64,000 bases of DNA from a virus (IMGVR_UViG_3300042198_000079:64001-128000); one strand, 5' to 3'. Counted from the stretch's first letter, positions 32,751-64,000 are shown. Notes: generated from the sequence alone by a model not told the origin. Program-made: numbers and translations.

Positions 32751-33050
32751 GTGGTTATAAAAACATTATGTATTAATACAATTTTATCTCGACCAGATTT
32801 TGTTAAAGAAATATGGGATATAAACTGTTCTGAAATAGACAAAGAATATATCATACTTTTAGAACGATATTTAAATAAAAACAATACCTTTAATATAAAA
32901 TATATTTTATCCACTCCTGAAATTTTAGAAAATAAAAAAATATTAAATTGGGCAAAAAAGAAAAAATATCCAGTATTAGATCATGAACTTCCCAAAGTAA
33001 TAGATACTAGCGAATTAGATAAAGAAATTATAAAGTGTTTATCTTTTTAA
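32751..33050 (+). CDS. Hypothetical protein
   Basis: 99-aa GTG-start ORF with a TTGATA...TACTAT-like promoter upstream. Confidence 0.5.
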   Translation: MVIKTLCINTILSRPDFVKEIWDINCSEIDKEYIILLERYLNKNNTFNIKYILSTPEILENKKILNWAKKKKYPVLDHELPKVIDTSELDKEIIKCLSF

Positions 33051-33709
33051 TTATTAATAATTTTGTTTAGAATATTGTTGACACTCTTTCTATTAATCAT
33101 AAAATCTAATCTATTAGTAGAATTTATCCTATAATAAGAGTTTACAATACTATCAAAAATTTCTTTTGAACCTACTGATTGAATTAAATTGTTTATTATA
33201 TTTTGATCAAAATAATCTAAAATAATATAATCATTATCTTCTTTGTTTATTTCTTTTCTTATTATTTCCCCTGTCGAATTTTCTTTTTTTGATAATTCGT
33301 AAAATTTTTTCCATATCTTAAAAGAATTTTCATTTATATAAGTATCACATCTCAACCATCCTTCGTCTTTATAAATTTTATATATTGTTTCCATTAAAAG
33401 ATAATAAAAAAATGGACCATTTCCTTTTTTAGGCACAAAAACATTATCTATCATAAATTTTGATTCAGATGGAGTCCAATCGGAAACACTACATTTAATC
33501 CATGCTTTTTCTAGATTATTTTTTATTTTAGCATCAGAATCAGAAATATCGTTTTTTATTATTATGCTTTTTATATTATTTTTAATTTTATCTTTAGTTT
33601 CAGATTTATATATTAATTCTATTTTTAATTTTTTATAATCTACTTCATTTTTTTTATCATTCATATCTTTCATTGCCATTTCTAACAAATATTTTTTAAA
33701 ATTTATCAT
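33047..33709 (-). CDS. Leader-tagged protein with GNAT-like acetyltransferase features
   Basis: Starts MINFKKYLLE; KKGNGPFFYYLLME..LRCD..SFKIWKKFY resembles GNAT motifs A/B. TATAAATA at 33718-33725. Confidence 0.5.
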   Translation of the reverse strand: MINFKKYLLEMAMKDMNDKKNEVDYKKLKIELIYKSETKDKIKNNIKSIIIKNDISDSDAKIKNNLEKAWIKCSVSDWTPSESKFMIDNVFVPKKGNGPFFYYLLMETIYKIYKDEGWLRCDTYINENSFKIWKKFYELSKKENSTGEIIRKEINKEDNDYIILDYFDQNIINNLIQSVGSKEIFDSIVNSYYRINSTNRLDFMINRKSVNNILNKIINN

Positions 33710-33800
33710 AATAATTTTATTTATAGAATTTAAAACAAATATCAGTTCTTGTGGATTTTTAATGTTGACATCGTTGTTCCGTTCGACTATCTCTAATAAG

Positions 33801-35150: not shown

Positions 35151-35233
35151 AAAAATTAAACAAAATTTAGTTGTCAACTTGACAAAATATATCATTGGAT
35201 ATAAGTTATTCTGGAAAGATACAAATACAACTA

Positions 35234-36544: not shown

Positions 36545-36641
36545 GTTATTTGAAAGTATAAAAATTATATAATATAATATTATTATGTATCGTGTATAAG
36601 AAGACGACACCGTAAACTCAATAAAACACATAAAAAACAAT

Positions 36642-37424
36642 ATGGACAGCAACAAAATAGGGGTAGGAATCGTTACATATAATTCTGAAGATTACTACAA
36701 CACATTATATCAAACACTACCCTTAGATAAAATTGACGTTTTAGTAACTGTTAATGGCGGAAACAAATACAAAAACGAATATAAAAGTAATTGGATTCAG
36801 CATTCAGAAAATGTTTATCCTTCAGTTTGTAGAAATGATTGTATAAATTTTTTATTACAAAGAAATTGCGAACATGTTTTTATAATTGAGGATGATATGG
36901 TTCTAAAATCGCCTGATATATTTGACAAATATATTCAAGCTTCAAAAGAGTCTGGTTTGAAATATTTTTCCTTTGTTTCTACATCTTGGGAGTCAGGTGA
37001 ACCCGGTAAACGCACACCACGTCTAACCGTTGAGTATAAAAATAATGTAAGCATTTCTTTTTATAAGAATATGTGTAATGAGTTTACTTATCATCATAAA
37101 ACCTGCTACGAAAAAACTGGTTTATACGATACAAACTTCAGAGACCCTTTTGATATTGACCTAGCTTATAGAGAATCTCGTCAAGATTATGCAGCACCTT
37201 TTTGGTGGTTTGCAGATATTACGAATTCAGATAATTTAATAACGAATAACCCTAATGCTGTATCACGCCTTCAAGGTGATCGACCGGACGGATCTCGGGA
37301 ACAAAGAATTCAAAAAGAATGGGAATATTTTATTAGTAAACATCAATTACATGTAACACAAATACCCGATATTAATAAAGAAAATTTGCTAAAAAAACTT
37401 AAACAAATTAAGTCTAATATATAA
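36642..37424 (+). CDS. GT2-like glycosyltransferase (paralogue of 26236..27084)
   Basis: IGVGIVTYN, VFIIEDD, TGLYD, WWFADI. Confidence 0.85.
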   Translation: MDSNKIGVGIVTYNSEDYYNTLYQTLPLDKIDVLVTVNGGNKYKNEYKSNWIQHSENVYPSVCRNDCINFLLQRNCEHVFIIEDDMVLKSPDIFDKYIQASKESGLKYFSFVSTSWESGEPGKRTPRLTVEYKNNVSISFYKNMCNEFTYHHKTCYEKTGLYDTNFRDPFDIDLAYRESRQDYAAPFWWFADITNSDNLITNNPNAVSRLQGDRPDGSREQRIQKEWEYFISKHQLHVTQIPDINKENLLKKLKQIKSNI

Positions 37425-37425
37425 A

Positions 37426-38175
37426 ATGAAAAAAATTTTAACAACTTTTGCAGGATATAGTTATACTTTAAAACTAAGCCAACTTAGATTAATTGAACAG
37501 GCTAAAAAACATTTTAATGGATGTGCAACTTTTGATGAAAACTCTCCACAAATAGTACAGTTATTTCATCAATATAAAGAAATAAGTCAGTATCGCCGTG
37601 GCGCAGGTTTTTGGATGTGGAAACCTTTTATAATACTTAAAACTTTTGAATCTCTTGATAACGGTGATTTTGTTTTTTATATGGATTCTGGAACCGATAT
37701 AATTGATGACTTAACCCCGCTTTTTAAATTATGTGAAAAAAATAATGGATTTTTATTTTTTGAAAATAGAAGTGGCAACCCTACAGGTAATATTTGGACT
37801 AACGATTTATGGACTAAAAAGGATTGTTTTATATTAACAGACTGCGACTCAGAAAAATTTTATAAAGCTTCTCAAGTTGACGGTGCATATATTTTATTAC
37901 AAAAAAATGATACAACAGTATTGTTTTTACAGGAATATTTTAAATATTGTACAGATCGTAGAATAATTACAGACGAACCAAACACTTTAGGCGAAAATTT
38001 ACCACAATTTATCGATCATCGACACGATCAATCAATACTTTCTTTATTAGTTAAAAAATACAATTTTAACCTATACCCACAACCATCAGAAGTTGGTAAC
38101 AGTCATCGACCACCTGATTGTCCGTATAAACAATTATTTTTGCATCATCGAGGAACTATTTTTGGCCGCGTATGA
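37426..38175 (+). CDS. Nucleotide-diphospho-sugar transferase-like protein
   Basis: RGAGFWMWKP, YMDSG, WTKKDCF, HRHDQSILSLL. Confidence 0.75.
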   Translation: MKKILTTFAGYSYTLKLSQLRLIEQAKKHFNGCATFDENSPQIVQLFHQYKEISQYRRGAGFWMWKPFIILKTFESLDNGDFVFYMDSGTDIIDDLTPLFKLCEKNNGFLFFENRSGNPTGNIWTNDLWTKKDCFILTDCDSEKFYKASQVDGAYILLQKNDTTVLFLQEYFKYCTDRRIITDEPNTLGENLPQFIDHRHDQSILSLLVKKYNFNLYPQPSEVGNSHRPPDCPYKQLFLHHRGTIFGRV

Positions 38176-38275
38176 AAATTTGTATATGTATTAATAGTTT
38201 TGAAGTTGAAGAGGACGTTATTTATAATTTAGAAAAAGCTTTCCCTAAATTAGAAAATACAACTATTGTAAAATA
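38172..38275 (+). pseudogene. Short truncated ORF, probable remnant of another glycosylation gene
   Basis: MKICICINSF... begins overlapping the previous stop (ATGA) and ends after about 34 codons. Confidence 0.3.
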
Positions 38276-39584: not shown

Positions 39585-39590
39585 AAAACC

Positions 39591-41847: not shown

Positions 41848-42630
41848 ATGTTGTCATTTAAAGAATTTCTAGTAGAGAATTTTATGGAAGAAGAATTGCC
41901 TACTTTAATAAGTGCAATAAAAAATCTTACTAGTAAAAATAGTTCTACTAAAGAAAAATTGTTAAAAGATCTTCAAGATATATACGGTTTTAAATTTGAA
42001 AATTTCGGATCAGGTGTGAGTTCTGTTGTTTATGCAGGAACAAAAAGCACAATTCCACAATATATAATGAAGATATTTGAAAGTTCTGAGGATACAGCAT
42101 CACAAGAATATCTTGAATATTGTAAGAGTAATCAAAGTTCTAATCCGTTTCTTCCGTTTCTTCCATCCCCAGAAAAACAACCTTTGATTTTAAATAAATT
42201 GCAGAAAATTTATATAATGGAATATGTAACGGTAGATCCGTGGAAAGGTAATAATCATTTAAGTATTTTTTTTGGTAAAGAAAAGTTTTCTAATTTTATA
42301 GACCAAGTTTCAAATATTTTGGGCGGTGATGTTATGGATTGGTTTGTTCCATCTGAAGTTATAATTTTTGATCACTGTATAAATGATCTTCTTATTGAAG
42401 ATCAAAGCAAGTTTGAAAAAATTCTGGAGGAATTATTCGATGATAAGTTTTATGACTTTATGAACTGGATTGGAGTCTATGAACATATCATAAATTCAAA
42501 TCCTAGAGCATCATTAGACTTTGGATATGGAAATTATGGCTTTAGACCAAGTGATGGTCATATGGTCATATTTGATCCACTAACCACCATGACCGAAGAC
42601 GAGAACCCGCTAACCTCCACAACCGAGTGA
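41848..42630 (+). CDS. Leader-tagged protein-kinase-like protein between nrdB and nrdA
   Basis: Starts MLSFKEFLVE; FGSGVSSVVY Gly-loop, IMKIF, YIMEY, LDFGYGNYG, VIFDP. Confidence 0.7.
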   Translation: MLSFKEFLVENFMEEELPTLISAIKNLTSKNSSTKEKLLKDLQDIYGFKFENFGSGVSSVVYAGTKSTIPQYIMKIFESSEDTASQEYLEYCKSNQSSNPFLPFLPSPEKQPLILNKLQKIYIMEYVTVDPWKGNNHLSIFFGKEKFSNFIDQVSNILGGDVMDWFVPSEVIIFDHCINDLLIEDQSKFEKILEELFDDKFYDFMNWIGVYEHIINSNPRASLDFGYGNYGFRPSDGHMVIFDPLTTMTEDENPLTSTTE

Positions 42631-46357: not shown

Positions 46358-46855
46358 ATGTTAGAAAAATTTAATAATTATATCAATGAATTTCTTTTAG
46401 AAAAAAAAGATAGATGTCACAGAAAAGCCGAACAAGTTTATGGTAAAAAAACTTCTGCATATAGAAGCGGAGCAATAGTAAAATGCAGACAAGGCAAAAT
46501 CTGGAAAAAGAAAAAAATTAAAGAAAATACAATAAAAGAAGAGACGCTTGAAGAACCAACACAACTTAATGAAAAAAACACTTTCTCGAAAGAAAAAGAA
46601 AGTGGTTTACATGGTTGGTTTTCTCGTCAAGGAGGAAAAGGAAAAAGTAAAGGCTGGGTAGATTGTAATACCTGTCGTAAAGATAAAAAAACAGGAAAGA
46701 AAACCTGCAAAACCTGTGGAAGAGGCAAAGGCGAAAAAAGAAGCAAATATCCTGCCTGTCGTCCAACACCTTCAGCGTGTAATTCCAGAAAAAGATTAAA
46801 AAAAGGATCTAAAAGAATTTCTTGGAAAAAAGGAAGTAGAACGAAATCCAAATAA
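46358..46855 (+). CDS. Leader-tagged, very basic Cys-rich protein
   Basis: MLEKFNNYINEFLLE; SAYRSGAIVKCR and GLHGWF..GWVDC..YPACRP modules. TATAAATA at 46344-46351. Confidence 0.7.
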   Translation: MLEKFNNYINEFLLEKKDRCHRKAEQVYGKKTSAYRSGAIVKCRQGKIWKKKKIKENTIKEETLEEPTQLNEKNTFSKEKESGLHGWFSRQGGKGKSKGWVDCNTCRKDKKTGKKTCKTCGRGKGEKRSKYPACRPTPSACNSRKRLKKGSKRISWKKGSRTKSK

Positions 46856-46857: not shown

Positions 46858-47637
46858 TTATTCTGTTTCTAAGTTTAAATATTTTGGAGGAACGTGTCCG
46901 TGAATAATTAAAGTATCTTCGCTTATTCCCTCCCAAGATTCTACTTCGCAATAATAATTATCTAAGCCTATCATATGTGCCAAAGATCTTTTTAATTCAC
47001 ATATATTTACAGATTCTTCTTGTGTTACTTCTGGCATATATCCGTCCTTTTTCATTAATCCTAAATCAATACTAAAAACACAATCTCCATACGATCCTGA
47101 ACCGCTTAGTGCGTTTTCATCTTCGTCAGTAAAACAAAAAATAGCATCTCCTGTAGATCTATTAGATATTCCTCTTGTTTCATTTCTTGGTTCTAATCCA
47201 CGTTTTTTTATACTTTCTACATTTTTACGTGGTGTTGCATGATATATAAAGCTCACATTTTCCTTTTCTGGAACGCTATCCCAAAATGATTCTTCTTCTC
47301 GTTCTGGTAAAAGCATTTCTACATCATAATCAGATAAATTATCTAACCATTCATCAGCTTTTTCTGAACGACTACCGTCGTATATATAAGTGTCTTTTTT
47401 GAAATTATAAACTATATATTTTTCTTTTTCTTTACTTAATTCGACAACCCAAAACACAATTCCGAATAATGTAAATATTTCTTCTATTTCATAAAGTTCT
47501 AAATTTGTTAAAAAATAATCATCTCTTGGATCAAATTCAGACACATTGTCAATATTTAATATATTTTTATAGTGTCTTATTTTTCTTTCTTTCGCTCTTT
47601 CTTCATTATCGTCTTCGGGAACATCGAACAAAAGCAT
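46858..47637 (-). CDS. Protein with C-terminal Tpt1/KptA-like ADP-ribosyltransferase-fold domain
   Basis: IYHATPRKNVESIKKRGLEP, IFCFT, YGDCVFSIDL, HVPPKYL. In-frame upstream VLSKYNKFIKE. Confidence 0.6.
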   Translation of the reverse strand: MLLFDVPEDDNEERAKERKIRHYKNILNIDNVSEFDPRDDYFLTNLELYEIEEIFTLFGIVFWVVELSKEKEKYIVYNFKKDTYIYDGSRSEKADEWLDNLSDYDVEMLLPEREEESFWDSVPEKENVSFIYHATPRKNVESIKKRGLEPRNETRGISNRSTGDAIFCFTDEDENALSGSGSYGDCVFSIDLGLMKKDGYMPEVTQEESVNICELKRSLAHMIGLDNYYCEVESWEGISEDTLIIHGHVPPKYLNLETE

Positions 47638-47680
47638 TTGCTCATATTGTTCTTTTATAAATTTATTATATTTAGATAAA

Positions 47681-48563
47681 ACACAAAGATACTTATATTA
47701 ATTTACTGGTTTAGTAATTAATTTCGTTTCGAGTTTCTTTATAAAATATTCTTATCCGTTAAGGTGGGATTTAAAATGTTTGTATAGCAGGACGAAATCT
47801 TGCTCTTTTTTCATCTATCACATCAAAATAAATTCTACCATATATTTCAAACGGATAACCAACAAAATCCATTATATTTCCTAAAATTGGAAGTTTAGAA
47901 CTAGTAAAATCCCAAATATCATAATATGAAATATATTCTCCTTCGTCGTCTTTACCATAACTTATTGTATAACTTCCCATAAATGTAGATTCTAGTCTAT
48001 GACTAGGAAAACCACATAAATCTGATATTTGACTGGAAGTTGCTGGTTTTCTTATTTTTTTAGCAACATCTACAAGTATTTTAGTATTTTCTTCTGACAT
48101 AATATAAAATTCTGCCAAATTATATTCTTTTTTCTCTGGTAAAATATCATAGTATATTGAATTTTTATTTTTACTTATTTTTGGGAGATGATTTGGATTT
48201 GTTATTTTAAAAAAACTTCTTTCTAACACTTCTTTATCTCCAGTAAGAAAATAATACCATGCATCATAATCTACTTTAAAATCATCTTCTAAATAATCAT
48301 CATTTTCAATGTCATCGAAATATTTATCTTTTGTCACACGTAGAATAAGATTTATAAATTCGTTTATACTTTTAGGAAATTCATTTCTTGGATCGATGTT
48401 TCTAAATATTCTGTCTGCCAATGATTTAGGCAACAACCCCTCATTTAATAAATTATCACAATATTTATTAAATGAATGTAATACAAACTTTTCTTTATTC
48501 ATATAAAGATATTTATATTGATTTACTGGTTTAGTAATTAATTTCAATTCAAGTTTCTCTATA
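47681..48563. repeat. 63-bp imperfect direct repeats (47681-47743 and 48501-48563), 820 bp apart
   Basis: 55/63 identical by hand alignment; shared core atttactggtttagtaattaatttc. Confidence 0.9.
47771..48502 (-). CDS. Leader-tagged hypothetical protein (second half of the 551-aa track ORF)
   Basis: Own TATAAATA at 48510-48517, 7 nt before ATG 48502; MNKEKFVLHSFNKYCDNLLNE; C-terminal GKDDEGEYISYYDIWDF..PFEIYGRIY. Confidence 0.7.
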   Translation of the reverse strand: MNKEKFVLHSFNKYCDNLLNEGLLPKSLADRIFRNIDPRNEFPKSINEFINLILRVTKDKYFDDIENDDYLEDDFKVDYDAWYYFLTGDKEVLERSFFKITNPNHLPKISKNKNSIYYDILPEKKEYNLAEFYIMSEENTKILVDVAKKIRKPATSSQISDLCGFPSHRLESTFMGSYTISYGKDDEGEYISYYDIWDFTSSKLPILGNIMDFVGYPFEIYGRIYFDVIDEKRARFRPAIQTF

Positions 48564-49426
48564 TTAATTTTAATTTTTGGAACATAATCTTTTGGAAGTT
48601 TGTTTTCTATACCTAAAAATTCTGTATTTTCGTCCACTATAAAAGTTAAAACAAGATCTGTTAAATTTAACATAATTTGCGAAGAGGTCCAGACTTTGTA
48701 GTTTGTTCTATATGGTTCTAAATAACCGGGAATTCCGTCATGATGTTTTCTGAGACTAGCAAGCAATTCTTCTGGAGTTTCTGATTTTCTTGCTTCTTTT
48801 GTTGCCAATCTATATCTAGACATAGACGATTTTCTATCTTTTCCTGTTTGATATCCTTGATCTGGATATTGAATACCGTGATTAGTTCTAACTATAATTT
48901 CATCTTTTCCAAACTTTTTAATTGACGGTTTTCCAAATTTCAATTTTTCAATTGAAACAAAATAATCTTTACAACCAACTGTTGTATGTCCTCCTATACC
49001 TCTTTGGTAAAGATCTAAACATTTTATAACTTTTTCGATATTACTATAACCAAGTGCTTTTCTTATTTTAAATCCATCTTTTGATATTTTTGTTTTTTTA
49101 TTTCTATGTTTTTTATCCATAGATACTCCTTCGTTTTCGTCTTTTTTTCCTTGTAGAGTAGTATTAACTATTCCTATACCAAATTCGTTCATTCCTTCCG
49201 AATAATCAGTTTCTTCATCGTGCATATATACTGTTTCTATCCCATTTATAATTTCTCTAACTATAGATATTCTCGGAATATATGTTCTATCTCTGTTTTT
49301 TGCTAAAATTACTTTTCCCGCAACCGAAGTTCCGACTGATGTGCATTCGTTTAATATTTTAAAATTATGATTATTTAAAGTTTCCAATAAAAACTTATTA
49401 TATTTATGTAAAAATAAAAAATTCAT
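47771..49426 (-). CDS. Ntn-hydrolase (C45/choloylglycine hydrolase-like) reading through in frame into the next gene
   Basis: E/CTSVG..LAKNRDR, SEGMNEFGIGIVN, VRTNHG, SSMSR. AATAAATA 6 nt before ATG. Confidence 0.8.
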   Translation of the reverse strand: MNFLFLHKYNKFLLETLNNHNFKILNECTSVGTSVAGKVILAKNRDRTYIPRISIVREIINGIETVYMHDEETDYSEGMNEFGIGIVNTTLQGKKDENEGVSMDKKHRNKKTKISKDGFKIRKALGYSNIEKVIKCLDLYQRGIGGHTTVGCKDYFVSIEKLKFGKPSIKKFGKDEIIVRTNHGIQYPDQGYQTGKDRKSSMSRYRLATKEARKSETPEELLASLRKHHDGIPGYLEPYRTNYKVWTSSQIMLNLTDLVLTFIVDENTEFLGIENKLPKDYVPKIKINIEKLELKLITKPVNQYKYLYMNKEKFVLHSFNKYCDNLLNEGLLPKSLADRIFRNIDPRNEFPKSINEFINLILRVTKDKYFDDIENDDYLEDDFKVDYDAWYYFLTGDKEVLERSFFKITNPNHLPKISKNKNSIYYDILPEKKEYNLAEFYIMSEENTKILVDVAKKIRKPATSSQISDLCGFPSHRLESTFMGSYTISYGKDDEGEYISYYDIWDFTSSKLPILGNIMDFVGYPFEIYGRIYFDVIDEKRARFRPAIQTF

Positions 49427-49561: not shown

Positions 49562-51043
49562 TTAATTTTCGTTCGCTTTGTTTTCTTCTTCTAATTCTAT
49601 AATTCTTCTTATTATATATAGAGGATTTTTAAAAGTGTCTACGATATAGACACTTTTATAATATTCTAATATTTTCATATAATTATCTAAAGCTTTTTTA
49701 TTTTTAATATGCCCGAGACTTCCTAATTCTTTAAAAACTCCTCTACCATATATTATCATATATGCATATGTATTATATTTCTCATAGTCATCCGTATCTT
49801 TTAGTTTGCCTTCTTCGTCTAAATTTAAAATATCGCAAACTTTATTAAAATCGTCTTTCATGTCGTTCCAAGATTCTATATATTCTTTTTTCTTTTTTTC
49901 TTCTTCGGCTTTATAATATTCTCTTTTTCTTATTCGTTGTTCTTCTTCTCTTTTTTCTTTTGAAAAAGTTTCTCCAGTATTAATATTTTCCTCTCCCCTT
50001 TCATACCAAATTCTTTTAAATTTATTTTTAAAGTCTGATAATTTTTCATCGTGATATAAAGTAACATCTATATCACCTCTTTCCGATTTTATTCTTATCT
50101 CCATTCCGTGCCTAGTGAATTTTTTAAACATTTTATGTTTTTTTTGTCCCATTTTTAAGTTTGCCATTCTGTATGGCAAACTCGCATCATAAATGTCAAT
50201 TTTTATTTCTCTACCCTTTACAGTCCAAAATATTTTATTATTATCACTATTTTTAATTTTGTCCTCGTTCATTTCTTTTGCTAAGAATGCTACAATTTTT
50301 CTTTTTAGCCTAAAAAGAAATTCTCCTCTTATTTCGTTTGAACCATTTCCCGTTACAAATGTTTCTATTATTTCAAAAGAAAAAGGAGTTAACCATAATA
50401 TTTGTTCCGGTTCAGCATGATATATTGATGCTTGATTTAATGTTTTTGCTTTGTCTTCCAAACAATCTATCCTCATAGATTTTAAAATTTTAGATTGATC
50501 AAATTGATTTCTAACAGTTGGTTCTACGAAATTATAATTTCTTCTACTATTTGTTCGCGTATTTGAAAAATCCATTTGAACTGCCGTCATGAATAATTTT
50601 CCGGGCGAGGTTACTCCTTTAGCTTTATTTGGATAAATTTTTTTTGCTCTAAAATATGAATCTTCGAAATCTATATCTTCAAAATTTGCTCTTTTTAACA
50701 AGTCTATAGCAAACCATTCCTCCATATCACTTAATATTACTTTATGTTTAGATGTGTCTTTTATAACTTTTAAAAATTTACTGTTAGCTCCGTAAAAAAT
50801 ATCACCCGGATGATCTATTACATATTTCAAAGGATATGCATATGTCCCTACGGGATCGTTGTGGGTAGGATCTTTACTAAAACCTTTGGATAAAACATCT
50901 GTACTATTTCCATTATCAAATCTAACATATAAAGTCGGGTCATTTTTTTTAGATTTATATTTTTTATAAAATTCGTTAAATCCTTTTGAAAAAACGTCAG
51001 AAAAATGCACTTCGCATAAAATATAATTTTTAAAACTTCTCAT
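49562..51043 (-). CDS. Leader-tagged hypothetical protein
   Basis: MRSFKNYILCE; TATAAATA at 51053-51060; motifs DPVGTYAYP and IYHAEPEQ. Confidence 0.7.
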   Translation of the reverse strand: MRSFKNYILCEVHFSDVFSKGFNEFYKKYKSKKNDPTLYVRFDNGNSTDVLSKGFSKDPTHNDPVGTYAYPLKYVIDHPGDIFYGANSKFLKVIKDTSKHKVILSDMEEWFAIDLLKRANFEDIDFEDSYFRAKKIYPNKAKGVTSPGKLFMTAVQMDFSNTRTNSRRNYNFVEPTVRNQFDQSKILKSMRIDCLEDKAKTLNQASIYHAEPEQILWLTPFSFEIIETFVTGNGSNEIRGEFLFRLKRKIVAFLAKEMNEDKIKNSDNNKIFWTVKGREIKIDIYDASLPYRMANLKMGQKKHKMFKKFTRHGMEIRIKSERGDIDVTLYHDEKLSDFKNKFKRIWYERGEENINTGETFSKEKREEEQRIRKREYYKAEEEKKKKEYIESWNDMKDDFNKVCDILNLDEEGKLKDTDDYEKYNTYAYMIIYGRGVFKELGSLGHIKNKKALDNYMKILEYYKSVYIVDTFKNPLYIIRRIIELEEENKANEN

Positions 51044-51095: not shown

Positions 51096-51563
51096 ATGAC
51101 ATCGACAATTTTAGAAAAATATACAAATTATATAAATTCTATTTTTGAATCCGAATCTAAAAAACAGGCAGTATTTATAATAATACCGATTAGTGAGAAC
51201 ACATTAGCAGCAACAACAAGACCAAACGAAGAAAACAAAATAGGACTTCCCGGAGGGAAGGTAGATCCCGGAGAAGAATTGATAGATGCTGTTGTTAGAG
51301 AATCTACAGAAGAAGGATGGAAAATAGACCGGAAGTTAGTTTCCGAAACCCCTATACGCGATATATTAATAAATAATACACACGTTTATTGGTTTAGATA
51401 TACAGGAACAGCAGAAGAATTATCAGAATATAAAGAAAAACATAGAGGTATACTCCCCATAGTAGTAACAGTTGAAGAAATTTCAAATTCTGGTTTTGGT
51501 AATGAATTTATTAGAAATTGGTGGAAGGAAAACGTAAAATTATTAAACGAAAAAAATAAATAA
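51096..51563 (+). CDS. Leader-tagged Nudix hydrolase
   Basis: GLPGGKVDPGEELIDAVVRESTEEG Nudix box; N-terminus LEKYTNYINSIFE. Confidence 0.9.
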   Translation: MTSTILEKYTNYINSIFESESKKQAVFIIIPISENTLAATTRPNEENKIGLPGGKVDPGEELIDAVVRESTEEGWKIDRKLVSETPIRDILINNTHVYWFRYTGTAEELSEYKEKHRGILPIVVTVEEISNSGFGNEFIRNWWKENVKLLNEKNK

Positions 51564-51568: not shown

Positions 51569-52597
51569 ATGAATTCTGATTTTTCTGTTCCAGATTTTAA
51601 ACTATTTCCAGTTACTAGGGATTTTATAGGAAGCACTGTTAAAAATCTTTGGCACCTTGAACAATTGGGATTAAAAAATGTTTGGGAAACAACTAAAGGA
51701 TCTGGTATAAAAATAGCAATTTTAGATTCTGGATTTGCACCACATGAAGAAATTAGTAATGTAAAAGAATCGATATCTTTTGTTTTAGATGAAGACGAAA
51801 TAGATTATGCCGGACACGGAACTAGTGTAATAGGGATCTTGGGATCTAAGTGCAAAGAACTTTGCGGCATATGTCCTGAATCAGAAATATATTCTTTAAA
51901 GATTTTGAATAGATATATCGAAGGAAATTTTGATTCTTTGTATAAAGCACTAGAATGGTGTTTAAAAAATAAACCAGATATAATAAATTTATCAATATCT
52001 TCCAAAACGGTTATGCCTCCCAATATAAAACAAATATTGGAAGAATTGTACAATCAAAATATAATTATATGTGCATCGACTGGGAACGATAGTTCGGAAA
52101 TTTCTTATCCTGCAAAATATGAATCCGTATTTTCAATAGGAGCATATGATCGAGACGGCAACATTGCAGCATTTTCTAACAGAGGAAACGAAATAGACTT
52201 TTCTGCTCCCGGTGTTGACATTTATACATGTAGTAATAAAAATAATGGATATGTACATGCGACCGGAACTAGTTTTGCTAGTCCGATATTTGCAGGAATA
52301 GTTTCTTTAATTTTATCAAAACACACTTTTGAAAGCATTAATCAATTAAAAACATATTTGGTAAAACACGTAAAAGATATGGGAGAAAAAGGATGGGATA
52401 AATTTTATGGATGGGGAAGCATTATACCAGAAACTGGTATAGAAATTTCAAACGATAAAACTTCTATCCGAGAAGAAAAAATTATATTGGGGACAAAACA
52501 AAAATGCTTTATAGATGATTTGCTTTTTCTTTTAAAGTCATTTAATAATTTAATAGGAAACGATAAAAATAAATTTCCAATATATCACAAAAATTAA
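51569..52597 (+). CDS. Subtilisin-family (S8) serine protease
   Basis: Triad ILDSG / GHGTSV / GTSFASP; oxyanion STGN. Confidence 0.95.
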   Translation: MNSDFSVPDFKLFPVTRDFIGSTVKNLWHLEQLGLKNVWETTKGSGIKIAILDSGFAPHEEISNVKESISFVLDEDEIDYAGHGTSVIGILGSKCKELCGICPESEIYSLKILNRYIEGNFDSLYKALEWCLKNKPDIINLSISSKTVMPPNIKQILEELYNQNIIICASTGNDSSEISYPAKYESVFSIGAYDRDGNIAAFSNRGNEIDFSAPGVDIYTCSNKNNGYVHATGTSFASPIFAGIVSLILSKHTFESINQLKTYLVKHVKDMGEKGWDKFYGWGSIIPETGIEISNDKTSIREEKIILGTKQKCFIDDLLFLLKSFNNLIGNDKNKFPIYHKN

Positions 52598-55825: not shown

Positions 55826-56620
55826 ATGAAGTCTTTTAGACAATATTTAAATAGTTTTTTAACAGAAAATTCCAAAAAAGAAGCGTTCGATCCGGCGCAG
55901 CAGGACGCGGATTACATGGCCGCAGTCAATGCCGCGACTCAAGCAAGGAATGAAATCATTGACCGGTTTAATGCGGAAAATGTTTTCATTTTCCGCGACC
56001 TAGTGCAGAGCTTTGGTCAGCCGCCAACCGCAGGAGACATTCAGAACGACGACACCGACGATGAGCAGACTCAATTTGCGTCTTGGAAGTATCGCTACGG
56101 CGAGGCGGCGGGGTATTTCGTCACCAGAAATCGAACTCGAAAAGAAAACGGACAATGGGGCCAATGGTCTAAATGGGAAGCCTTTTCTCCAAAGTTCGAC
56201 CGACCGACGGACACGTTTGAAACCGCTGACGAAGCGATTGCTTGGTTGCGAACAGCGCCAATCATGGATGCAGGCAACCAAGTTGCGCTTGCCAAAACGT
56301 ATGAATCAGATCGCAATCGGGCGCTGGCAACATTTGAACTTCTGAATAAACTTGCAGTGCCTTCAGGCTGGACGTTGGTAAACGCACAAGACAGTCAATT
56401 CGGATCAAAGTATTGGAACCTAGTTGCTTCGGACGGCACAAAATACAAACTTTCGGTTCGGTCGCATGAACCTTCGCCCAAATGGCAGGCAGAACTTGGC
56501 GCAATTGATTATTACGTGCCGCTTCGATGGGATAAAGGCGACGCGATAAAGACCGTTCCGCTAGAAGACATTTCAGAAGCAATGTCTAAATTGGAAGATT
56601 GGTTGCGATCAAAAGCTTAA
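55826..56620 (+). CDS. Leader-tagged fragment of a GC-rich polyvalent-type protein
   Basis: AT-rich MKSFRQYLNSFLTE leader fused to GC-rich QQDADYMAAV...; TATAAATA at 55813-55820. Confidence 0.75.
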   Translation: MKSFRQYLNSFLTENSKKEAFDPAQQDADYMAAVNAATQARNEIIDRFNAENVFIFRDLVQSFGQPPTAGDIQNDDTDDEQTQFASWKYRYGEAAGYFVTRNRTRKENGQWGQWSKWEAFSPKFDRPTDTFETADEAIAWLRTAPIMDAGNQVALAKTYESDRNRALATFELLNKLAVPSGWTLVNAQDSQFGSKYWNLVASDGTKYKLSVRSHEPSPKWQAELGAIDYYVPLRWDKGDAIKTVPLEDISEAMSKLEDWLRSKA

Positions 56621-57424
56621 GGCAATCTTTCCGCCCTAGCGACGCCGCAGCAAGACGCTGCCTACCTCGCAGCCGTCGAGGCGGGCGATATGAAGACGGC
56701 GCAGCGAATGGTGAATGATGCGGCTGAAAATAAACAAACAGTTTTCCGAGGGCAAAAAGGCTTTCAGAGTAAATACCCGAAAAGCACTAAAGGATTCTTT
56801 GGGGTTGGACAGAAGATTGTTCCAACTTTTTGGACAACTTCCGAATCATTAGCAAAAGATTATTCTCGCGATGGAGAATACAAAGGATCGACAACACCAT
56901 CAGCAGAAGCGCAGAAAGGAATCGCTGCATGGGAATACGAGAATGTCTGGACAAGGAGTGACGGTTCACAATACACAACCACGGACACTACAACTGATAA
57001 GGGCATAGCGGAAAAGGCAAAAGAACAAGGAAGAAGAGTTAAAGAAACAAGGGTCTTCCCTCAAACCGCAACTGTGCAATCTGCAAAGTTGTTTTTCAAA
57101 AAACCTCTTGTGCTTGATGCAAACGGAGCAATTTGGCGAGAAGTGAATTTCAAAGGTAGGAAGATGTCTACCGATCAGATCGTTGAATACGCTTTCAAAA
57201 ACGGATATGATGGAGTGGAAATTAAGAATGTCAGAGATTCTTTTGCGGGGTTAAGGTTTGAAGATACCTCTAATGTATTGGTCTCATTTTATCCCGAACA
57301 AGTAAAATCCGCAGACCCAGTAACCTACGACGAATCCGGCAACATAATCCCACTTTCCAAACGATTTAATCCTGATAGCGAATCAATCAATGAATCAAAT
57401 GTCATATTTTCATATTGGAGTTAA
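56621..57424 (+). CDS. ART-PolyVal-like domain, in frame with the preceding ORF after a single TAA
   Basis: QQDAAYLAAVEAGDMKTAQRMV, VFRG, FWTT..AKDY, GYDGVEIKNVRD, QVKSADPVTYDESGNIIPLSKRFN. Confidence 0.7.
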   Translation, partial: GNLSALATPQQDAAYLAAVEAGDMKTAQRMVNDAAENKQTVFRGQKGFQSKYPKSTKGFFGVGQKIVPTFWTTSESLAKDYSRDGEYKGSTTPSAEAQKGIAAWEYENVWTRSDGSQYTTTDTTTDKGIAEKAKEQGRRVKETRVFPQTATVQSAKLFFKKPLVLDANGAIWREVNFKGRKMSTDQIVEYAFKNGYDGVEIKNVRDSFAGLRFEDTSNVLVSFYPEQVKSADPVTYDESGNIIPLSKRFNPDSESINESNVIFSYWS

Positions 57425-58870
57425 TTCTTGGGTATTCTCGTCATAAAAAGATACAATTCTTAATATTTTTCTTTTTTCTCTTTCTGCGATTTTTTGCATT
57501 TTTTCTATTTCTGTTTCGTAATATTTTTCAGGATCTTTTTTATATTTTGAAATTACTTCATCTGAAAATATTTTATTTAATTCTTCACTAATATCATCTT
57601 CTGCTGTGGGGTTAAGCACATGTTTAGATCCTATACTAAATAATTCGCTTGGGGGGAGGATTTCATAAAACGTGTCTTCTAAGCGTTGTTTAAAAATATT
57701 AAGAATTTTGTCTAAAAATGATTTTATCACTAGAATATCAGTTTCATTTTTCAATTTATTTATCAAATCTTTTCTAAATTTTACACACTCCTCAAAAAGT
57801 GGTATTAAATCTGTAAGGTTACTTCTTCTTAAGAAATGGATAACCACATCGGGTTTTTCATTTTCCAATACATTTAATATAGTATGAGCGATTTTGGTAT
57901 TATTGTGAAATTTTTGTAATACAAAATCAGTAATCTCAGTAATTTCTAAAAATTTAATAATTTTGTCTTTTTCTTCTTTTTCTTTCAACCCATTTATAAA
58001 ATTATTATATGAAAACTTATGTATTTCGTCTAATTTTTTATATAATTCGTTATTTTTTATTGCATTTATCAAATCGTTTTTTGTTTCAAATTTTCTTCTT
58101 TTATTACCATGTGAAAAAAGACTAGAATATATCTGTGTAGGATAATTAGGTATTTCTATTTTATCTATAAAATATTTATTATGATAAAATTTATAAATAT
58201 TTTTGATATTATAAACTGGAAGTATTGCCTTCCTGAAATCCGAATTTGTAAAATATTCTACCATCTCCCCAAATCCCGTTCCTGTTTTATTTCGTTTTCT
58301 CCTTGTAAATATATGACCAAGTTCATGAGACACAGCACTGACACATTCAGAATTTAATTCGTCTAATCCCTCTATAATTTTATTTTTTGTATTAGGAATT
58401 GTTAGCGGATCGATATCTAGAATTGCGCCTTTATTTAACAAATATTTTATTGTTATTTGTATTGTATCTTGATCTTCATAAATAATATATTTGCCTTTTT
58501 TGTGTTTTGCAATTGGAACTTGTGTAGATGCACCTCTCATGACAATTTTTTTATCTTTATGTAAATTTCCCAACGAATCAAAATTTTCTATAAAATCAAT
58601 TGTTATTCGGTATGTTAATTTATTAAATATTTTATCTCCTATTACAAATTCATCGCCAGCATTACATACATATTGACCATCTATTATAGATGAAGTCCGG
58701 TCATTATTATAGAACTTATTAAAATCCATGATTACTGATCTATTATTTCGGTTTAAATCCTCTATAATTTTATCATATATTATTGTGTATATTCTTTCTG
58801 ATACTTCGTGTATTTTTGGAAAAATCCCTCTGGCTTCTGATAAAAGCAAATATTCTTTAAATGTTTTCAT
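57410..58870 (-). CDS. Leader-tagged HExxH metallopeptidase-like protein
   Basis: MKTFKEYLLLSEARG; VSHELGH and downstream YFIDKIE. TATAAATA at 58878-58885. Confidence 0.65.
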   Translation of the reverse strand: MKTFKEYLLLSEARGIFPKIHEVSERIYTIIYDKIIEDLNRNNRSVIMDFNKFYNNDRTSSIIDGQYVCNAGDEFVIGDKIFNKLTYRITIDFIENFDSLGNLHKDKKIVMRGASTQVPIAKHKKGKYIIYEDQDTIQITIKYLLNKGAILDIDPLTIPNTKNKIIEGLDELNSECVSAVSHELGHIFTRRKRNKTGTGFGEMVEYFTNSDFRKAILPVYNIKNIYKFYHNKYFIDKIEIPNYPTQIYSSLFSHGNKRRKFETKNDLINAIKNNELYKKLDEIHKFSYNNFINGLKEKEEKDKIIKFLEITEITDFVLQKFHNNTKIAHTILNVLENEKPDVVIHFLRRSNLTDLIPLFEECVKFRKDLINKLKNETDILVIKSFLDKILNIFKQRLEDTFYEILPPSELFSIGSKHVLNPTAEDDISEELNKIFSDEVISKYKKDPEKYYETEIEKMQKIAEREKRKILRIVSFYDENTQELTPI

Positions 58871-58922
58871 TTACATTTATTTATATTCGTAAATATAAAT
58901 AAATATATAATAAAGTCTATTT

Positions 58923-59937: not shown

Positions 59938-59957
59938 ATATAAATATAAATATCTGT

Positions 59958-61022
59958 GTGTTGACTTTTAAAAAATATCTCTTAAATGAACGAATTGGAG
60001 CTATAGAGGACAGGGATGATGATGGGGAGTATAAAGAATTTAGAACCATTATAAACGAAATATGGGGATTGATCCTAGATTGGTCAAAAGGAGTTTTTCC
60101 TTATGATGAGTTAAAAGTTAAAGATAAAGGAATTTCAACAAAGTTAATAAAATTAACTTTAGATTTAACCAAGGTAAAATCGCTTGGGGTGTTTTACCCC
60201 AAATTGTTTAGAGATAAATCTGTAAAAGATGATCTTAATGTTGAAACGGTGTTGATTCATTCTTTTGGAAAGTTAGACATTTTCGAACAACTTTTTAATG
60301 CCTTATCAATAACTCACGATAAGAAGGTTGTTGAATTAATTGATGAGTTATTGACCCTTTACATGGGAAGCGTCAGAACTAGTGGAAATATATCTTTTGA
60401 TGATGAAACGGGAGAATACACTATAAAATGCTTACTCGTTACTAAAGAAATATCATTAGATAATAACAACTTCAATCCTTCTCTATACGACTTTATAAAA
60501 AGCAATGAGAACTTTGAATACATTTTTAGAGAAGAGTGCAGACATTTTTTACAAAATCTCTTAATAAGCAAGACTTCTCTATCTAAAAATTTTGATAAGT
60601 TAGAAGATTATTTAATAGATCCTTATGAAATTGGTGCTAAAATAGAAGAAGGGTTGTTGAAGTTGGATAAAATTTTAGCCATTGATAAATTTTATAGAAT
60701 GTTTCTAGATATGTTACCATACTTCGATAAGTATGAATTTTTTTCTAAAGTGGTATCCTCTATACTTACAGATTTTTGGACTAAGACAACTGAGGATGTT
60801 AGGCATATACATAATTATATACATAGAAAAAATCCAACAAAAGTTGACGAAATAGAGCATTTAGTTTATATTGAAGTTATAGAACCTTTTCTTTTTACAA
60901 GTCTTCTACCACATATAAAAGAATACGTTGATAAATTTAGAGAAGAAGAATTGGGGAAGGACTGGGATAATATAGAAAATAATATTTCTTGGGAATTTTT
61001 TAAAAAGATTAAAGAATTATGA
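59958..61022 (+). CDS. Leader-tagged protein, degenerate metallopeptidase-like
   Basis: MLTFKKYLLNE; REECRH followed by YLIDPYEIGA. Tandem TATAAATA at 59939-59952. Confidence 0.6.
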   Translation: MLTFKKYLLNERIGAIEDRDDDGEYKEFRTIINEIWGLILDWSKGVFPYDELKVKDKGISTKLIKLTLDLTKVKSLGVFYPKLFRDKSVKDDLNVETVLIHSFGKLDIFEQLFNALSITHDKKVVELIDELLTLYMGSVRTSGNISFDDETGEYTIKCLLVTKEISLDNNNFNPSLYDFIKSNENFEYIFREECRHFLQNLLISKTSLSKNFDKLEDYLIDPYEIGAKIEEGLLKLDKILAIDKFYRMFLDMLPYFDKYEFFSKVVSSILTDFWTKTTEDVRHIHNYIHRKNPTKVDEIEHLVYIEVIEPFLFTSLLPHIKEYVDKFREEELGKDWDNIENNISWEFFKKIKEL

Positions 61023-61160
61023 AAAAGATATACTACAGACAATGCACAATGGAACGAACAATAAATGGTTCGACACATCATCATATAGCAGGTTTGGGAA
61101 AATGGTTGGAAGGTAACAACTGTCGGAGATTCTAAAAGAGAAGAGTCTGAAGATAATTAA
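61019..61160 (+). pseudogene. Probable internally deleted small phage gene
   Basis: MKKIYYRQCTMER... in one frame and ENGWKVTTVGD...* in another. Confidence 0.3.
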
Positions 61161-61168
61161 TATTAATA

Positions 61169-61574
61169 ATGTTGTCATTTAAGTGTTATTTTATAGAATC
61201 TACCACTTCTGATATTAGACCAGCAACCTCAGACGATTATGACCTAGTTTCTAAATTAGAAAAGGAAAATTATCCAGACGATCCTTGGATTGGAAGTCTT
61301 GAAGAGTTTGAAAATGTTCTGTTAAGTTTCTATTGGAGGACCACATGCAAAGGAAATGTTACAATTCTTTTTAAGAATCCCTAGTAAAGTAAATCGCTAT
61401 TATACTCATTCTTTTGACAAAAATACTGGCAAGACCGACTGGTTTGAAAAAATAGAATTTTTAAAAGATAATGGATTTGTAGATATTGGACCGGGCGACC
61501 AATCCAAAGAATCGGTTCCGTGGGCATATGATCTTAGTAAAATGCGCGAATTAGAATATATAACAATAGACTAA
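61169..61574 (+). pseudogene. Leader-tagged GNAT-like gene split by a frameshift or deletion
   Basis: MLSFKCYFIE..IRPATSDDYDLVSKLEKENYP (61169..61384) and IEFLKDNGFVDIG (61356..61574) lie in different frames. Confidence 0.5.
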
Positions 61575-61604
61575 AAAAGTTTTTCGATAATATAAATATA
61601 TAAA

Positions 61605-64000
61605 ATGCTTTCTTTTAAAAAATTTATACAACAAAAAGATTATTGCAGTCGAAGAATATTAGAAGCGTCAGATTTCGTATTAGATGGCGCAAAAATTAGA
61701 AAAAGTATAGAGAATATAAAGGAAAGACCTTTTAATGAATTATTTGGTAATAAAGACCGATTTCTAGTAAAAGCATTTAATCCTGTATTTTTACAGTATA
61801 TGGAACTATTTGATTTAAATCAAAATAATTTTGATTTAAAAAAAGGAGTTTATATAGAAAACGGTAAAAGAATGAGATACGGAAATATAATTAAAGACAG
61901 AACCCAAAAAAATGTATCTATTACACCAAAAGAAGTTAGACAACTAAAACACTTATTAAAACAAAAGCAAATATATGCACATTTGCTTTTTTCAAGACAT
62001 CCTATGGATGTAATAAGAATGAGCGATATAAATAAAATAAGCTCTTGTCATTCTCCTTATGGATCGAAGTTCGATTGTGCAATAACAGAATCACAAAACA
62101 ACGGAGGTATTGTTTTTATAATAAACGAAAGAGACAAAAAAAATGTTGAAAAAAATTTAGACATTGAGGATCTCTTTGAAGATCGAGATCGGAATATTAA
62201 AGGTTTTGTCACTCCATTGGCGCGAGTTAGACTTAGGAGGTTTGTGGATGTTTTAGAAGAATGTGATTTTGCAGTACCTGAAAAAAGATATTATGTTCCT
62301 GACGGAGATATGATGGGATATAGCGGGTTTTATAGTAATATAGTTCTAGATTATTGTAGAAAAAATCAAAAAATTTTTAAAGATTCTCCTTCAGATAAAT
62401 ACATAAGTGAAAATATTTTTCATACTGGAGGAGATTATACCGATACTCCATATCTTGAGTTATTAAATAATTTTTTTGACAGGGATACCGTTCAAGGACT
62501 TGGCGGAAGTTATGGTTCTTTTGCCGAAATTCCTTTTGAACGCTTGCCATTTGCAAAAGAAAAATATTTATTATTAAGAAATAGCAAAAATATTCTAAAA
62601 GAACTTAAACCTTATATTGGTAAAGATTATACAGCATTGTTTAGTCTTATGAAATTTTCTATAAATATTGGAGAATATTTAGATGCTGTTTTTTTAGAAA
62701 AAGTTATACCTTTGTATATTAAACAATGTATTGCCAAAAACAGACAACCTTGTATTTCAGGCCATAGAGGATTATTTATTTTTCTAAAAATATATAATTT
62801 GTTAATTGAAACGAATTCTACTTCGTCTTCTTCTGAATTATTAGCAAACATTATTATAAAATATTTATCCACACCTTCTTATCTCTATGGTCCGCCATTT
62901 GTAATGGATTTTTATACAAATGGGCAAGACTTTTGGTTTCAAAACATGAGAATTCCATCAGATTATAATGATTTTATAGTAAATATGAAAAAATTCATAG
63001 CTAATAATAAAGAAAAAATAATAAATTTGATAAATAATACACAAATACCCCTTTTCAACATAATTTATTTTTATAGAACATTGAGGGTAAGTGTTGGCGA
63101 TTATGACGGTTTAACACATTCAAATATTAAAAACGAAAGCATTAAATTTATATTATCGGAAACAAAACAAAAATTTATATCTTTAACCGTAAAAAGTATA
63201 TGTCTACATTTAGTATGGGCTAACTTCCATTTGGACAATTTATTTTACGATAATAAAAATATAGGCGAAAATGATATGATATATTTTTACTCTCCTAGCG
63301 ACGATGCAGTAATTAATTTTTCTGATTTAGATAAAAAAGAAAAACTATCGAATATTTTATTTCCTACACTTTTGGACACTTTAAATCAAATAATTTATTC
63401 CAAATATACTCATCTAAACTTAGATTATTATTTAAATAGATTTATTCTTCTTTGTCGTATTGTATTTAAAGATAACAAAATAATCTATAATAATATTATA
63501 GATTATTTTGTAAACGATATTATACCTGGAAGTGTAGAACTGAAGCAAACCACCACTATAATCACTCGTGAAAATATTTATGGAATTATTCGTTTATTTT
63601 TGCTACACTCTTTATTAAGCGAATCTCAAATTAAAAAAATAAAGTCGAAATTAATAGAATGCGATATTAATTATATAAAGCATAGTATGCATGATTCTTT
63701 TAAACATAGTTTAAATGGTTGCCTCTTTGAATATTATTTAAAAGATTTATATTTTTATTCTTTTTTCGTTAAATATTTGAATAATAATAGACATAATGAT
63801 TATTTTATTCCATTTTCTTTAAATGAAGAAGAAATAAAAACATATGAAGATTTGATTATGTTATGGATATTCGATAGAGATTTAAATCAGGAAGGACAAT
63901 CAATACGTAGATTATATGATGATGGTAGTAGAACTTTTTCTTATGTTAATATACAAGTGGTTAGCAATAATAATAATATTGAAGAAGGAATACCAATACC
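61605..64000 (+). CDS. Large leader-tagged protein with a PcfJ-like motif; runs off the window (not in ORF track)
   Basis: TATAAATA at 61591-61598, ATG 61605. MLSFKKFIQQ..RILE; SRHPMDVIRMSD..SSCHSP..CAITE..PLARVRLRRF..VPEKRYY. Frame is open where checked (start, middle, end). Confidence 0.75.
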   Translation, partial: MLSFKKFIQQKDYCSRRILEASDFVLDGAKIRKSIENIKERPFNELFGNKDRFLVKAFNPVFLQYMELFDLNQNNFDLKKGVYIENGKRMRYGNIIKDRTQKNVSITPKEVRQLKHLLKQKQIYAHLLFSRHPMDVIRMSDINKISSCHSPYGSKFDCAITESQNNGGIVFIINERDKKNVEKNLDIEDLFEDRDRNIKGFVTPLARVRLRRFVDVLEECDFAVPEKRYYVPDGDMMGYSGFYSNIVLDYCRKNQKIFKDSPSDKYISENIFHTGGDYTDTPYLELLNNFFDRDTVQGLGGSYGSFAEIPFERLPFAKEKYLLLRNSKNILKELKPYIGKDYTALFSLMKFSINIGEYLDAVFLEKVIPLYIKQCIAKNRQPCISGHRGLFIFLKIYNLLIETNSTSSSSELLANIIIKYLSTPSYLYGPPFVMDFYTNGQDFWFQNMRIPSDYNDFIVNMKKFIANNKEKIINLINNTQIPLFNIIYFYRTLRVSVGDYDGLTHSNIKNESIKFILSETKQKFISLTVKSICLHLVWANFHLDNLFYDNKNIGENDMIYFYSPSDDAVINFSDLDKKEKLSNILFPTLLDTLNQIIYSKYTHLNLDYYLNRFILLCRIVFKDNKIIYNNIIDYFVNDIIPGSVELKQTTTIITRENIYGIIRLFLLHSLLSESQIKKIKSKLIECDINYIKHSMHDSFKHSLNGCLFEYYLKDLYFYSFFVKYLNNNRHNDYFIPFSLNEEEIKTYEDLIMLWIFDRDLNQEGQSIRRLYDDGSRTFSYVNIQVVSNNNNIEEGIPI

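Follow-up and report, generated by a model that had tools for sequence, protein, structure and literature searches.

A shared N-terminal leader resembling the T4 capsid-targeting sequence on diverse genes of a T4-like phage contig

Leader genes of a T4-like virus contig

The 144,634-bp virus contig IMGVR_UViG_3300042198_000079 from IMG/VR carries a dispersed set of genes whose products share a short N-terminal leader, and this leader resembles the capsid-targeting sequence (CTS) of the internal proteins of phage T4. The window analyzed here is a stretch of 64,000 nucleotides, bases 64001-128000 of this contig, and coordinates are given for the window or for the contig. In total, 26 leader genes were counted on the contig, including members that lack the final Glu of the motif. 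Together they encode 8,330 amino acids (aa), or 17% of the contig. Thirteen fall in the span of the window that had originally been flagged, and a scan of the whole contig, as had been proposed, added 13 further members elsewhere, beyond the window. Eight of the genes outside the window are clustered at contig 28.7-38.5 kb, around a gene for a prohead protease of the Peptidase_S77 family.

All 13 N-termini listed in the original prediction are present with the right positions and strands, and two of them, at window 47682 (-) and 48502 (-), need qualification (see below). To measure enrichment, the pattern [FY]xx[YFW][LIFVCY]..[LIFVM]xE was scored at the N-termini of 150 genes. It matched 22 of them, against about 1.3 expected from the 32 internal matches in 45,689 residues (Poisson P ~4e-20). 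As a positive control, the same pattern recovered ipII and ipIII of T4, both annotated as internal virion proteins. A stricter pattern, [STN]F[KR]x[YF][LIF], gave 40 six-frame matches, 11 of which precede an open reading frame (ORF) of more than 60 aa; 10 of these 11 lie at residue 3 of the ORF. The payloads behind the leaders are unrelated, as had been claimed, and after removal of the first 22 aa only two pairs were still related by BLASTP. The motif had also been described as missing from replication and metabolism genes. This agrees with the annotation, since the helicases, ribonucleotide reductase (RNR) subunits, and DNA polymerase assigned by Pfam or PHROG are all negative for the pattern.

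The leader takes the form M-x-[ST/K]-F-[KN]-x-Y-[LI]-x-E, or a variant that is one helical turn longer. Aligned on their first aromatic residue, the leaders have the consensus F-[KN]-x-[YF]-[LI]-x-E, and the long form, F-N-x-Y-[LI]-N-x-[FM]-L-x-E, has four additional residues ahead of L-x-E. Among 25 anchored leaders, the first residue is F or Y in all 25 and the residue at +3 is Y, F, or W in all 25, whereas L or I is found at +4 in 19, and E at +6 in 11 and at +10 in 7. In the short form, the aromatic residues occupy positions 4 and 7, Leu or Ile position 8, and Glu position 10. In amber-suppressor mutagenesis of T4 IPIII, whose leader is MKTYQEFIAE, residues 4 and 7 proved to be the main determinants of capsid targeting, and processing depended on residues 8 and 10 (PMC9026906).

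The remaining parts of a T4-type maturation system are encoded on the contig, which is a T4-like myovirus with 30% G+C. The major capsid protein (MCP; window 2125..3738, +) belongs to the gp23 family (PHROG 138). PF07068 was found in all of its homologues, and identity is about 27-33% to those of cultured T4-like phages and 42-51% to many metagenomic ones. Portal, large terminase, sheath, and gp15-like genes are also encoded. DNA searches with two 8-kb pieces found no close relatives among 50,697 phage records. A gp21-type prohead protease is encoded at contig 37256-37993, with the Peptidase_S77 domain (PF03420, 54.3 bits) at contig 37409-37831, and its catalytic His and Ser motifs (HPP and GVSxRxLG) align with those of T4 gp21. 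A gp55-type late sigma factor lies at window 30980..31543 (-; PHROG 234, E=2e-19). The MCP propeptide ends in RLNE/AG (the slash marks the bond that is cut), which aligns with the T4 gp23 maturation site FLTE/AE, and this agreement suggests that the L-x-E rule extends to the lineage of the contig. The match at mapped positions 4, 7, 8, and 10, the presence of the protease and the sigma factor, and the fit of the MCP site all support the earlier suggestion that the leader is a T4-type capsid-targeting sequence and prohead-protease propeptide.

The leader genes are further marked by a late box. TAAATA was found 3-12 nt upstream of 21 of the 26 leader genes and of 37 of 125 other genes (Fisher P=2e-6), so the predicted co-occurrence of leader and late box was confirmed. 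In these 21 leader genes the box, mostly present as TATAAATA, sits 5-11 nt ahead of the start codon. Over the whole contig, TAAATA precedes the start codon by 3-12 nt in 58 of 151 genes, for example at window 33709, 46358, 55826, and 58870, without a Shine-Dalgarno sequence. Because TAAATA is close to the ATG and a Shine-Dalgarno sequence is missing, the late mRNAs probably start at or beside the start codon, and would be leaderless or nearly so.

One part of the original prediction was not supported, namely that promoter and tag travel as a portable DNA module of about 50 bp. The fraction of identical synonymous codons in the leaders was 0.71, against 0.62 +/- 0.065 expected from codon usage, so codon sharing is no higher than codon usage predicts, and copying at the DNA level was found in a single 59-nt repeat pair. 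As the leader codons vary freely, it is the peptide that is conserved and not a recently copied DNA cassette, and this variation argues for selection on the leader peptide.

A Cys-Ntn hydrolase and the bond before its nucleophile

One cargo, a Cys-Ntn hydrolase encoded at window 48503..49426 (-), bears on cleavage. Its leader, MNFLFLHKYNKFLLE..KILNE, is followed by the nucleophile, Cys28. The Pfam family AAT matched at only 22 bits, under the cut-off of 23.2, and a search of 1.84 billion representative proteins returned 454 homologues. In an AlphaFold2 (AF2) model built with 40 homologues (pLDDT 86), the leader is disordered apart from a short helix, and Cys28 opens the first strand. Foldseek matched the model to isopenicillin N acyltransferase (IAT; 2x1c, E=7e-9). 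VIA-align gave Z scores of 21.8 for CV2077 (3gvz), 19-20 for IAT, NAAA, and acid ceramidase (19.6 for both IAT and NAAA), and 16-17 for penicillin V acylase (PVA) and bile salt hydrolases (BSH). These alignments start at model residue 28, which corresponds to Cys1/2 of PVA and BSH, Cys126 of NAAA, and Cys143 of acid ceramidase. C28, R45, D46, N182, and R204 are invariant in the 40 sequences, their equivalence to PVA and BSH residues being judged by spacing only. With the predicted alpha-beta-beta-alpha fold and these structural alignments, the Ntn-hydrolase label of the original prediction is solid.

The solved Cys-Ntn hydrolases require the nucleophile Cys as a free N-terminus, and everything ahead of it must be removed. 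In the best 150 representative homologues the Cys is invariant in 144, and the residues ahead of it form three classes. Met precedes the Cys in 14, some of them stand-alone relatives. A small residue (x-[AGS]/C) precedes it in 78, mostly long multi-domain proteins of 700-2,800 aa. The third class, [LIVMF]-x-E, accounts for 49; most of these are about 287 aa long and have a leader of roughly 13 residues. Among the best 80 homologues in IMG/VR, all 80 have [LIVMF]-x-E/C, behind several types of leader.

The family is present on more than 570 viral contigs. A whole-contig search found Peptidase_S77 encoded on 13 of 16 large contigs that carry it, among them all five with a completeness of 90% or more; only 8 of 80 loci had a T4-like core gene within 10 kb. 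In the flanks of close relatives (L134-L137), no further leader genes were found. Homologues in another group of IMG/VR contigs (L141-L147, L150, and L185) have the leader MIKLRNLLxELNE immediately before the Cys, and in their upstream DNA 'ctatttattag' takes the place of TATAAATA.

The essential bond of the enzyme thus carries the head-protease motif across phage homologues with several leader types. We read the cut site of this family as strong indirect evidence that the prohead protease cleaves the leaders, and the hydrolase itself would be a zymogen matured in the prohead. A literature search found no paper on an Ntn hydrolase unmasked by a protease.

Payloads, gene flux, and relatives

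The 26 leader genes encode proteins with a pI of 4.3-11.0 and a length of 71-899 aa, about three of which are small and very Lys-rich. Pfam and PHROG searches of the 26 cargoes gave no family for most, and most are ORFans. Searches of the PDB with phmmer found nothing for the 486-, 354-, 260-, and 308-aa cargoes or for the A2 profile, and an Atlas search gave nothing usable for the 493-aa cargo. As far as can be judged from sequence comparison, the cargo set is mostly lineage-specific and includes a predicted Nudix hydrolase, a T7 gp0.7-like kinase, the Cys-Ntn hydrolase, a post-stop ART-PolyVal module, and very basic small proteins.

The Nudix cargo (window 51096..51563, +; 155 aa; leader MTSTILEKYTNYINSIFE) matched PF00293 at 33.2 bits, above the curated threshold of 21.1, as well as PHROG 1198, and this label is solid. 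A subtilase gene (Peptidase_S8, 141 bits) follows directly at window 51569-52597, with its own TAAATA box and without a leader. The kinase-like label, given to a 260-aa cargo with the leader MLSFKEFLVE (window 41848..42630, +), has moderate support: PHROG 15752 matched over 75 residues (E=4e-6), and Pfam gave no match. The Atlas linked this protein, with a feature score of 0.97, to phage clusters in which 11-17% of members have Phage_T7_kinase, and its structure reached a TM of 0.5-0.57 to Phage_T7_kinase clusters and 0.44-0.46 to APH/Pkinase clusters. Other labels fared worse. The GNAT-like label is backed by a 19-bit sub-threshold match in a gene outside the window and is weak, and no support was found for the PcfJ-like label. 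The metallopeptidase-like label has a HELGH motif as its sole basis. This motif lies in a 486-aa cargo (window 57410..58870, -; leader MKTFKEYLLLSE) and is kept in the only homologue of that protein, with the first 18 residues identical in both proteins. An AF2 model built from these two sequences was unusable (pLDDT 40).

Further cargo genes in the window encode a 220-aa protein with the leader MINFKKYLLE (33047..33709, -), which has TATAAATA 8 nt upstream and for which no family was found, and a 165-aa protein with the long-form leader MLEKFNNYINEFLLE (46358..46855, +). The latter is very basic (pI 10.3, 23% Lys), resembles a T4 internal protein, and has a homologue in the relative G003 (see below). 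Two ORFans, of 493 aa with the leader MRSFKNYILCE (49562..51043, -) and of 354 aa with a GTG start and the leader (M)LTFKKYLLNE (59958..61022, +), were also found. A small gene of 71 aa with the leader MLSFKCYFIE (61169..61384, +) lacks the TAAATA box. The last gene (61605..64000, +; 853 aa; leader MLSFKKFIQQ..ILE) continues to contig base 128166 and is a paralogue of contig 1965-4076.

The 59-nt repeat pair lies near the Ntn hydrolase gene. Its two copies, at window 47685..47743 and 48505..48563, are direct repeats with 90% identity; each comprises a gene end and a late promoter, and they bracket an 820-bp cargo cassette. Since the upstream copy has CAA at the position of the Ntn stop codon, the Ntn hydrolase and the next cargo form a single 551-aa ORF (47771-49426). 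The start at 48502 (-) is thus an internal Met of this ORF. It belongs to a 243-aa cargo gene (47771..48502, -) that has its own TATAAATA and ATG and the leader ..SFNKYCDNLLNE, and the junction of the ORF is this leader, which itself ends in LLNE. The gene after the downstream copy (46858..47682, -) has lost both the late box, mutated to TATAAGTA, and the start codon. Its decayed leader, VLSKYNKFIKE, opens with GTT, and the first ATG, at 47637, lies past the leader. The repeats, the CAA codon, and the decayed leader fit recombination at promoter-leader junctions, and ORF 47771-49426 shows how two-module chains may arise.

A second chain-like arrangement lies at window 55826..56620 (+), where the leader MKSFRQYLNSFLTE is fused to a GC-rich (40-60%) module that starts with the polyvalent-like linker PAQQDADYMAAV and ends in TAA. 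An ART-PolyVal module (56621..57424, +) follows in the same frame directly after the stop. Its match to PF18760 is 26 bits, below the cut-off of 31.2; many further homologues carry PF18760, and the module shares 59% identity with residues 192-445 of P0121, a protein of 1958 aa. The ART module is solid as a domain and oddly placed, with a stop codon between it and the leader. A second, weak match to ART-PolyVal/DUF3990 lies outside the window, at contig 31923-32741. The segment at window 55900-57400 is an island of 40-60% G+C inside DNA of 26% G+C. It holds two modules of the polyvalent-protein type, with a QQDAxYxAAV linker ahead of each. The island was apparently gained recently, from a donor of higher G+C, and a comparison with plasmids gave no match.

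The payloads had been proposed to overlap the domain classes of polyvalent proteins. This stands for the ART-PolyVal module, through its homology to P0121, and for the Ntn domain, which also occurs in multi-enzyme proteins of 1900-2800 aa; it does not extend to most cargoes, which are ORFans without a Pfam or PHROG family. In four such large proteins (P0281, P0321, P0356, and P0291), the Ntn domain is accompanied by topoisomerase IB, polyA-polymerase/CCA-type nucleotidyltransferase, RNA ligase, ChaC, and HAD domains. They have x-[AGS] ahead of the Ntn Cys, which suggests that they are self-cleaving multi-enzyme chains.

Pattern scans of IMG/VR with the protease or the MCP alone found no relatives of the contig, and alignment of the MCP was needed to find them. 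Relatives at 42-50% MCP identity share the leader type, for example MKTFKQYFLE and MITFKQFLIE, so that the scan of relatives suggested originally gave a positive answer. The number of tagged genes per contig is about 2-3 in G003, 6 in G004, 8 in G002, and 12 in G005 (85 kb), compared to 22 pattern matches here and 2 in T4. With the leaders removed, only 4 of the 26 cargoes had a homologue in six genomes (four relatives, MA9V-1, and T4), compared to 47 of 125 other genes.

Among cultured phages, the Ntn cargo was found only in the Chryseobacterium phages MA9V-1 and MA9V-2. MA9V-1 (OR050627.1) has ..FLNE/C in its Ntn homologue and three genes with T4-like leaders, which start MKNFFSFINE, MKTFTCFINE, and MKTFFNFVNE. 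In its record (L221), a Peptidase_S77 domain lies at 126606-126944, inside a 1349-aa open frame, and immediately upstream, at 126205-126453, is the gene whose leader is MKTFTCFINE. The link to MA9V-1 through the Ntn gene, together with the absent Shine-Dalgarno sequences, hints weakly at a Bacteroidota host.

Two other genes of the window have unusual architectures. In the RNR large subunit (42744-46007; 1087 aa), an intein (PF14890, 39 bits) occupies residues 616-786. A DnaB-like helicase gene (14531-16969; 812 aa) has an additional P-loop region at residues 200-570 that matches terminase and DnaC-like PHROGs, and this region may be an insertion or a fusion.

Proposed mechanism, alternatives, and known systems

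We consider the shared N-terminus to be this phage's version of the T4 CTS, by which proteins are loaded into the head, cleaved, and delivered, with a probability of about 75%. Docking, cleavage, packaging, injection, and host targets are steps that we infer. The leader genes would be transcribed late from TATAAATA boxes by the gp55-type sigma factor. The short amphipathic leader (aromatic-x-x-aromatic-[L/I]-x-E) would dock the protein on the scaffolding core during prohead assembly, where the gp21-type serine protease would cut after the Glu of [L/I]-x-E and free the mature protein inside the head. The mature protein would then exit the head with the DNA at infection. In the case of the Ntn hydrolase, the same cut may generate the free N-terminal Cys, and the zymogen would be switched on only inside the prohead.

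Several observations weigh against this interpretation. Five of the 26 leader genes have no nearby TAAATA. Four members are negative for the pattern (contig 28702-31401, 34613-35182, and 38044-38523, and window 61605-), and two of these four have no [LI]-x-E near the leader (MLKKFNDYLKSFFNK and MLNKFNNYCETFLG). Conversely, a 694-aa protein positive for the pattern (contig 13817-15901), which starts with MSDNFEEWLNE behind TATAAATA, carries phage tail repeats (121 bits, PF12789) and may belong to the tail, so that the pattern lacks full specificity; it is either a coincidental match or a tagged protein whose repeats are fibre-like. The payloads are for the most part acidic or neutral and reach 899 aa, unlike the small basic T4 IPI-III. 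The ART module at 56621-57424 is separated from the in-frame leader gene at 55826-56620 by a TAA stop, and the completeness of the contig is estimated at only 67%. NAAA, acid ceramidase, and IAT are self-processing Cys-Ntn hydrolases, and the Glu-Cys bond of the phage enzyme could therefore be cut autocatalytically.

An alternative that we regard as unlikely accepts loading and cleavage, and takes the tagged proteins mostly as structural or scaffold-like contents of the head, such as inner body, DNA-condensing proteins, and assembly factors, rather than injected effectors. The many payloads without an enzymatic family would suit such a role, as would the several that are small and Lys-rich, like DNA-binding internal proteins. 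A scaffold-like protein at contig 27752-28645 also has a similar N-terminus, MNLFENYQLTE, and 18 [LIVMF]xE sites. However, a structural role is not obvious for the Nudix, kinase-like, and Ntn payloads, conservation of the cargo among relatives is low, unlike that of structural genes, and T4 proteins and fusions that are tagged with the CTS reach the host (PMC9026906).

It is far less probable that the leader is a propeptide which holds potentially toxic late enzymes inactive in the producing cell until the phage protease or self-processing takes it off, with no packaging involved. Such a role would be compatible with an Ntn hydrolase that is inactive until cut and with a family that includes self-processing enzymes, whereas a 10-residue tag is not expected to inactivate folds as unrelated as Nudix and kinase, the leader fits the T4 targeting determinants as well as the cut site, and the T4-type protease is active solely within the prohead core (PMC9026906). 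Least probable of all is that the conserved first codons are an mRNA downstream box of nearly leaderless late transcripts and not a protein sorting signal, because, although TAAATA lies only 5-9 nt from the ATG without a Shine-Dalgarno sequence and the leader codons are A/T-rich, 37 other genes, many of them structural, share the box spacing but not the motif, synonymous codons are free to vary while residues are conserved, the motif terminates in a protease site, and the Ntn site is locked to the nucleophile Cys despite quite different leaders and upstream DNA.

Beyond loading and delivery through a CTS-type leader, a wider reading can be proposed tentatively, with slightly less than even odds. 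In an uncultivated, probably Bacteroidota-infecting T4-like lineage, the CTS would be a general plug-in address by which about one sixth of the genome is delivered as protein. The Ntn family, at least, would be a true zymogen that could become active only inside the capsid and act only in the next host, and cargo chains such as ORF 47771-49426 would link tagged genes to giant polyvalent proteins.

T4, with its handful of injected proteins, is the textbook case of this strategy, and the 26 tagged genes in one phage suggest that the CTS mechanism may scale to a whole arsenal. Injected proteins are well placed against host defences, because they are active before any phage gene is expressed. In metagenomic T4-like phages, an N-terminal aromatic-x-x-aromatic-[LI]-x-E, a late box, and an S77 protease together provide a rule for listing candidate injected proteins. 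The Ntn family offers a testable case of an enzyme activated by a capsid maturation protease, with MA9V-1 as a cultured carrier (gene MA9V1_182). CTS fusions of T4 have already been used for loading foreign proteins into capsids, and the leader tag is therefore of practical interest.

The mechanism in the original prediction is the published one, since T4 reviews already describe the CTS on diverse internal proteins. The internal proteins of T-even phages are highly diverse and have the CTS alone in common (PMC3012670), and one suggestion is that evolution may use the CTS as a device to bring varied proteins into the capsid (PMC9026906). The present set goes beyond this concept in its scale and in payloads that are enzymatic or very large; further additions are a second form of leader, a connection to polyvalent modules, and the proposed unmasking of the Ntn hydrolase by the protease. 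Like T4 IPI, IPII, and IPIII, it combines a 10-residue tag (aromatic residues at 4 and 7, I or L at 8, Glu at 10), predicted late expression, a gp21-family protease, and unrelated payloads. It differs in having 26 tagged genes (22 by pattern, compared to 2 by the same pattern in T4), payloads that are often large, acidic, or enzymatic where those of T4 are small and basic, a longer second leader form, and an MCP with only about 27-33% identity to those of cultured T4-like phages.

A further parallel is T4 Alt, a packaged ADP-ribosyltransferase, which the prohead protease gp21 trims and which enters the host with the DNA (PMC5512222, PMC9026906). The present set also has ART-like payloads, but their domains are of the ART-PolyVal/DUF3990 type and not of the Alt/VIP2 clade, and the clearest one (56621-57424), behind a stop codon, does not carry its own leader. 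The polyvalent proteins of phages and conjugative elements (Iyer et al. 2017, PMC5512222) have likewise been proposed to deliver disparate enzymes with the invading DNA, and they share a homologous ART-PolyVal module and the Ntn domain with this phage. They combine 2-15 disparate domains in one polypeptide, whereas separate genes, each with its own promoter and tag, are found here; only ORF 47771-49426 and the stop-separated pair 55826-57424 look like two-module chains.

In the giant phages phiKZ and SPN3US, the prohead protease belongs to another family and cuts at the motif S/A/G-x-E, and to our knowledge no short common targeting tag of the T4 type has been described for them. The likeness lies in their many head-internal proteins, such as ejection and inner-body proteins, with N-terminal propeptides, which are removed after Glu by the prohead protease (PMC5694885, PMC7411985). 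With the self-processing Cys-Ntn hydrolases, the phage family shares the fold, a first strand that opens with the nucleophile Cys, and a precursor that must shed everything before this Cys. The difference lies in the residues ahead of the Cys, where the phage family has neither Met nor a self-cleaved linker but [LIVMF]-x-E, the motif of another enzyme.

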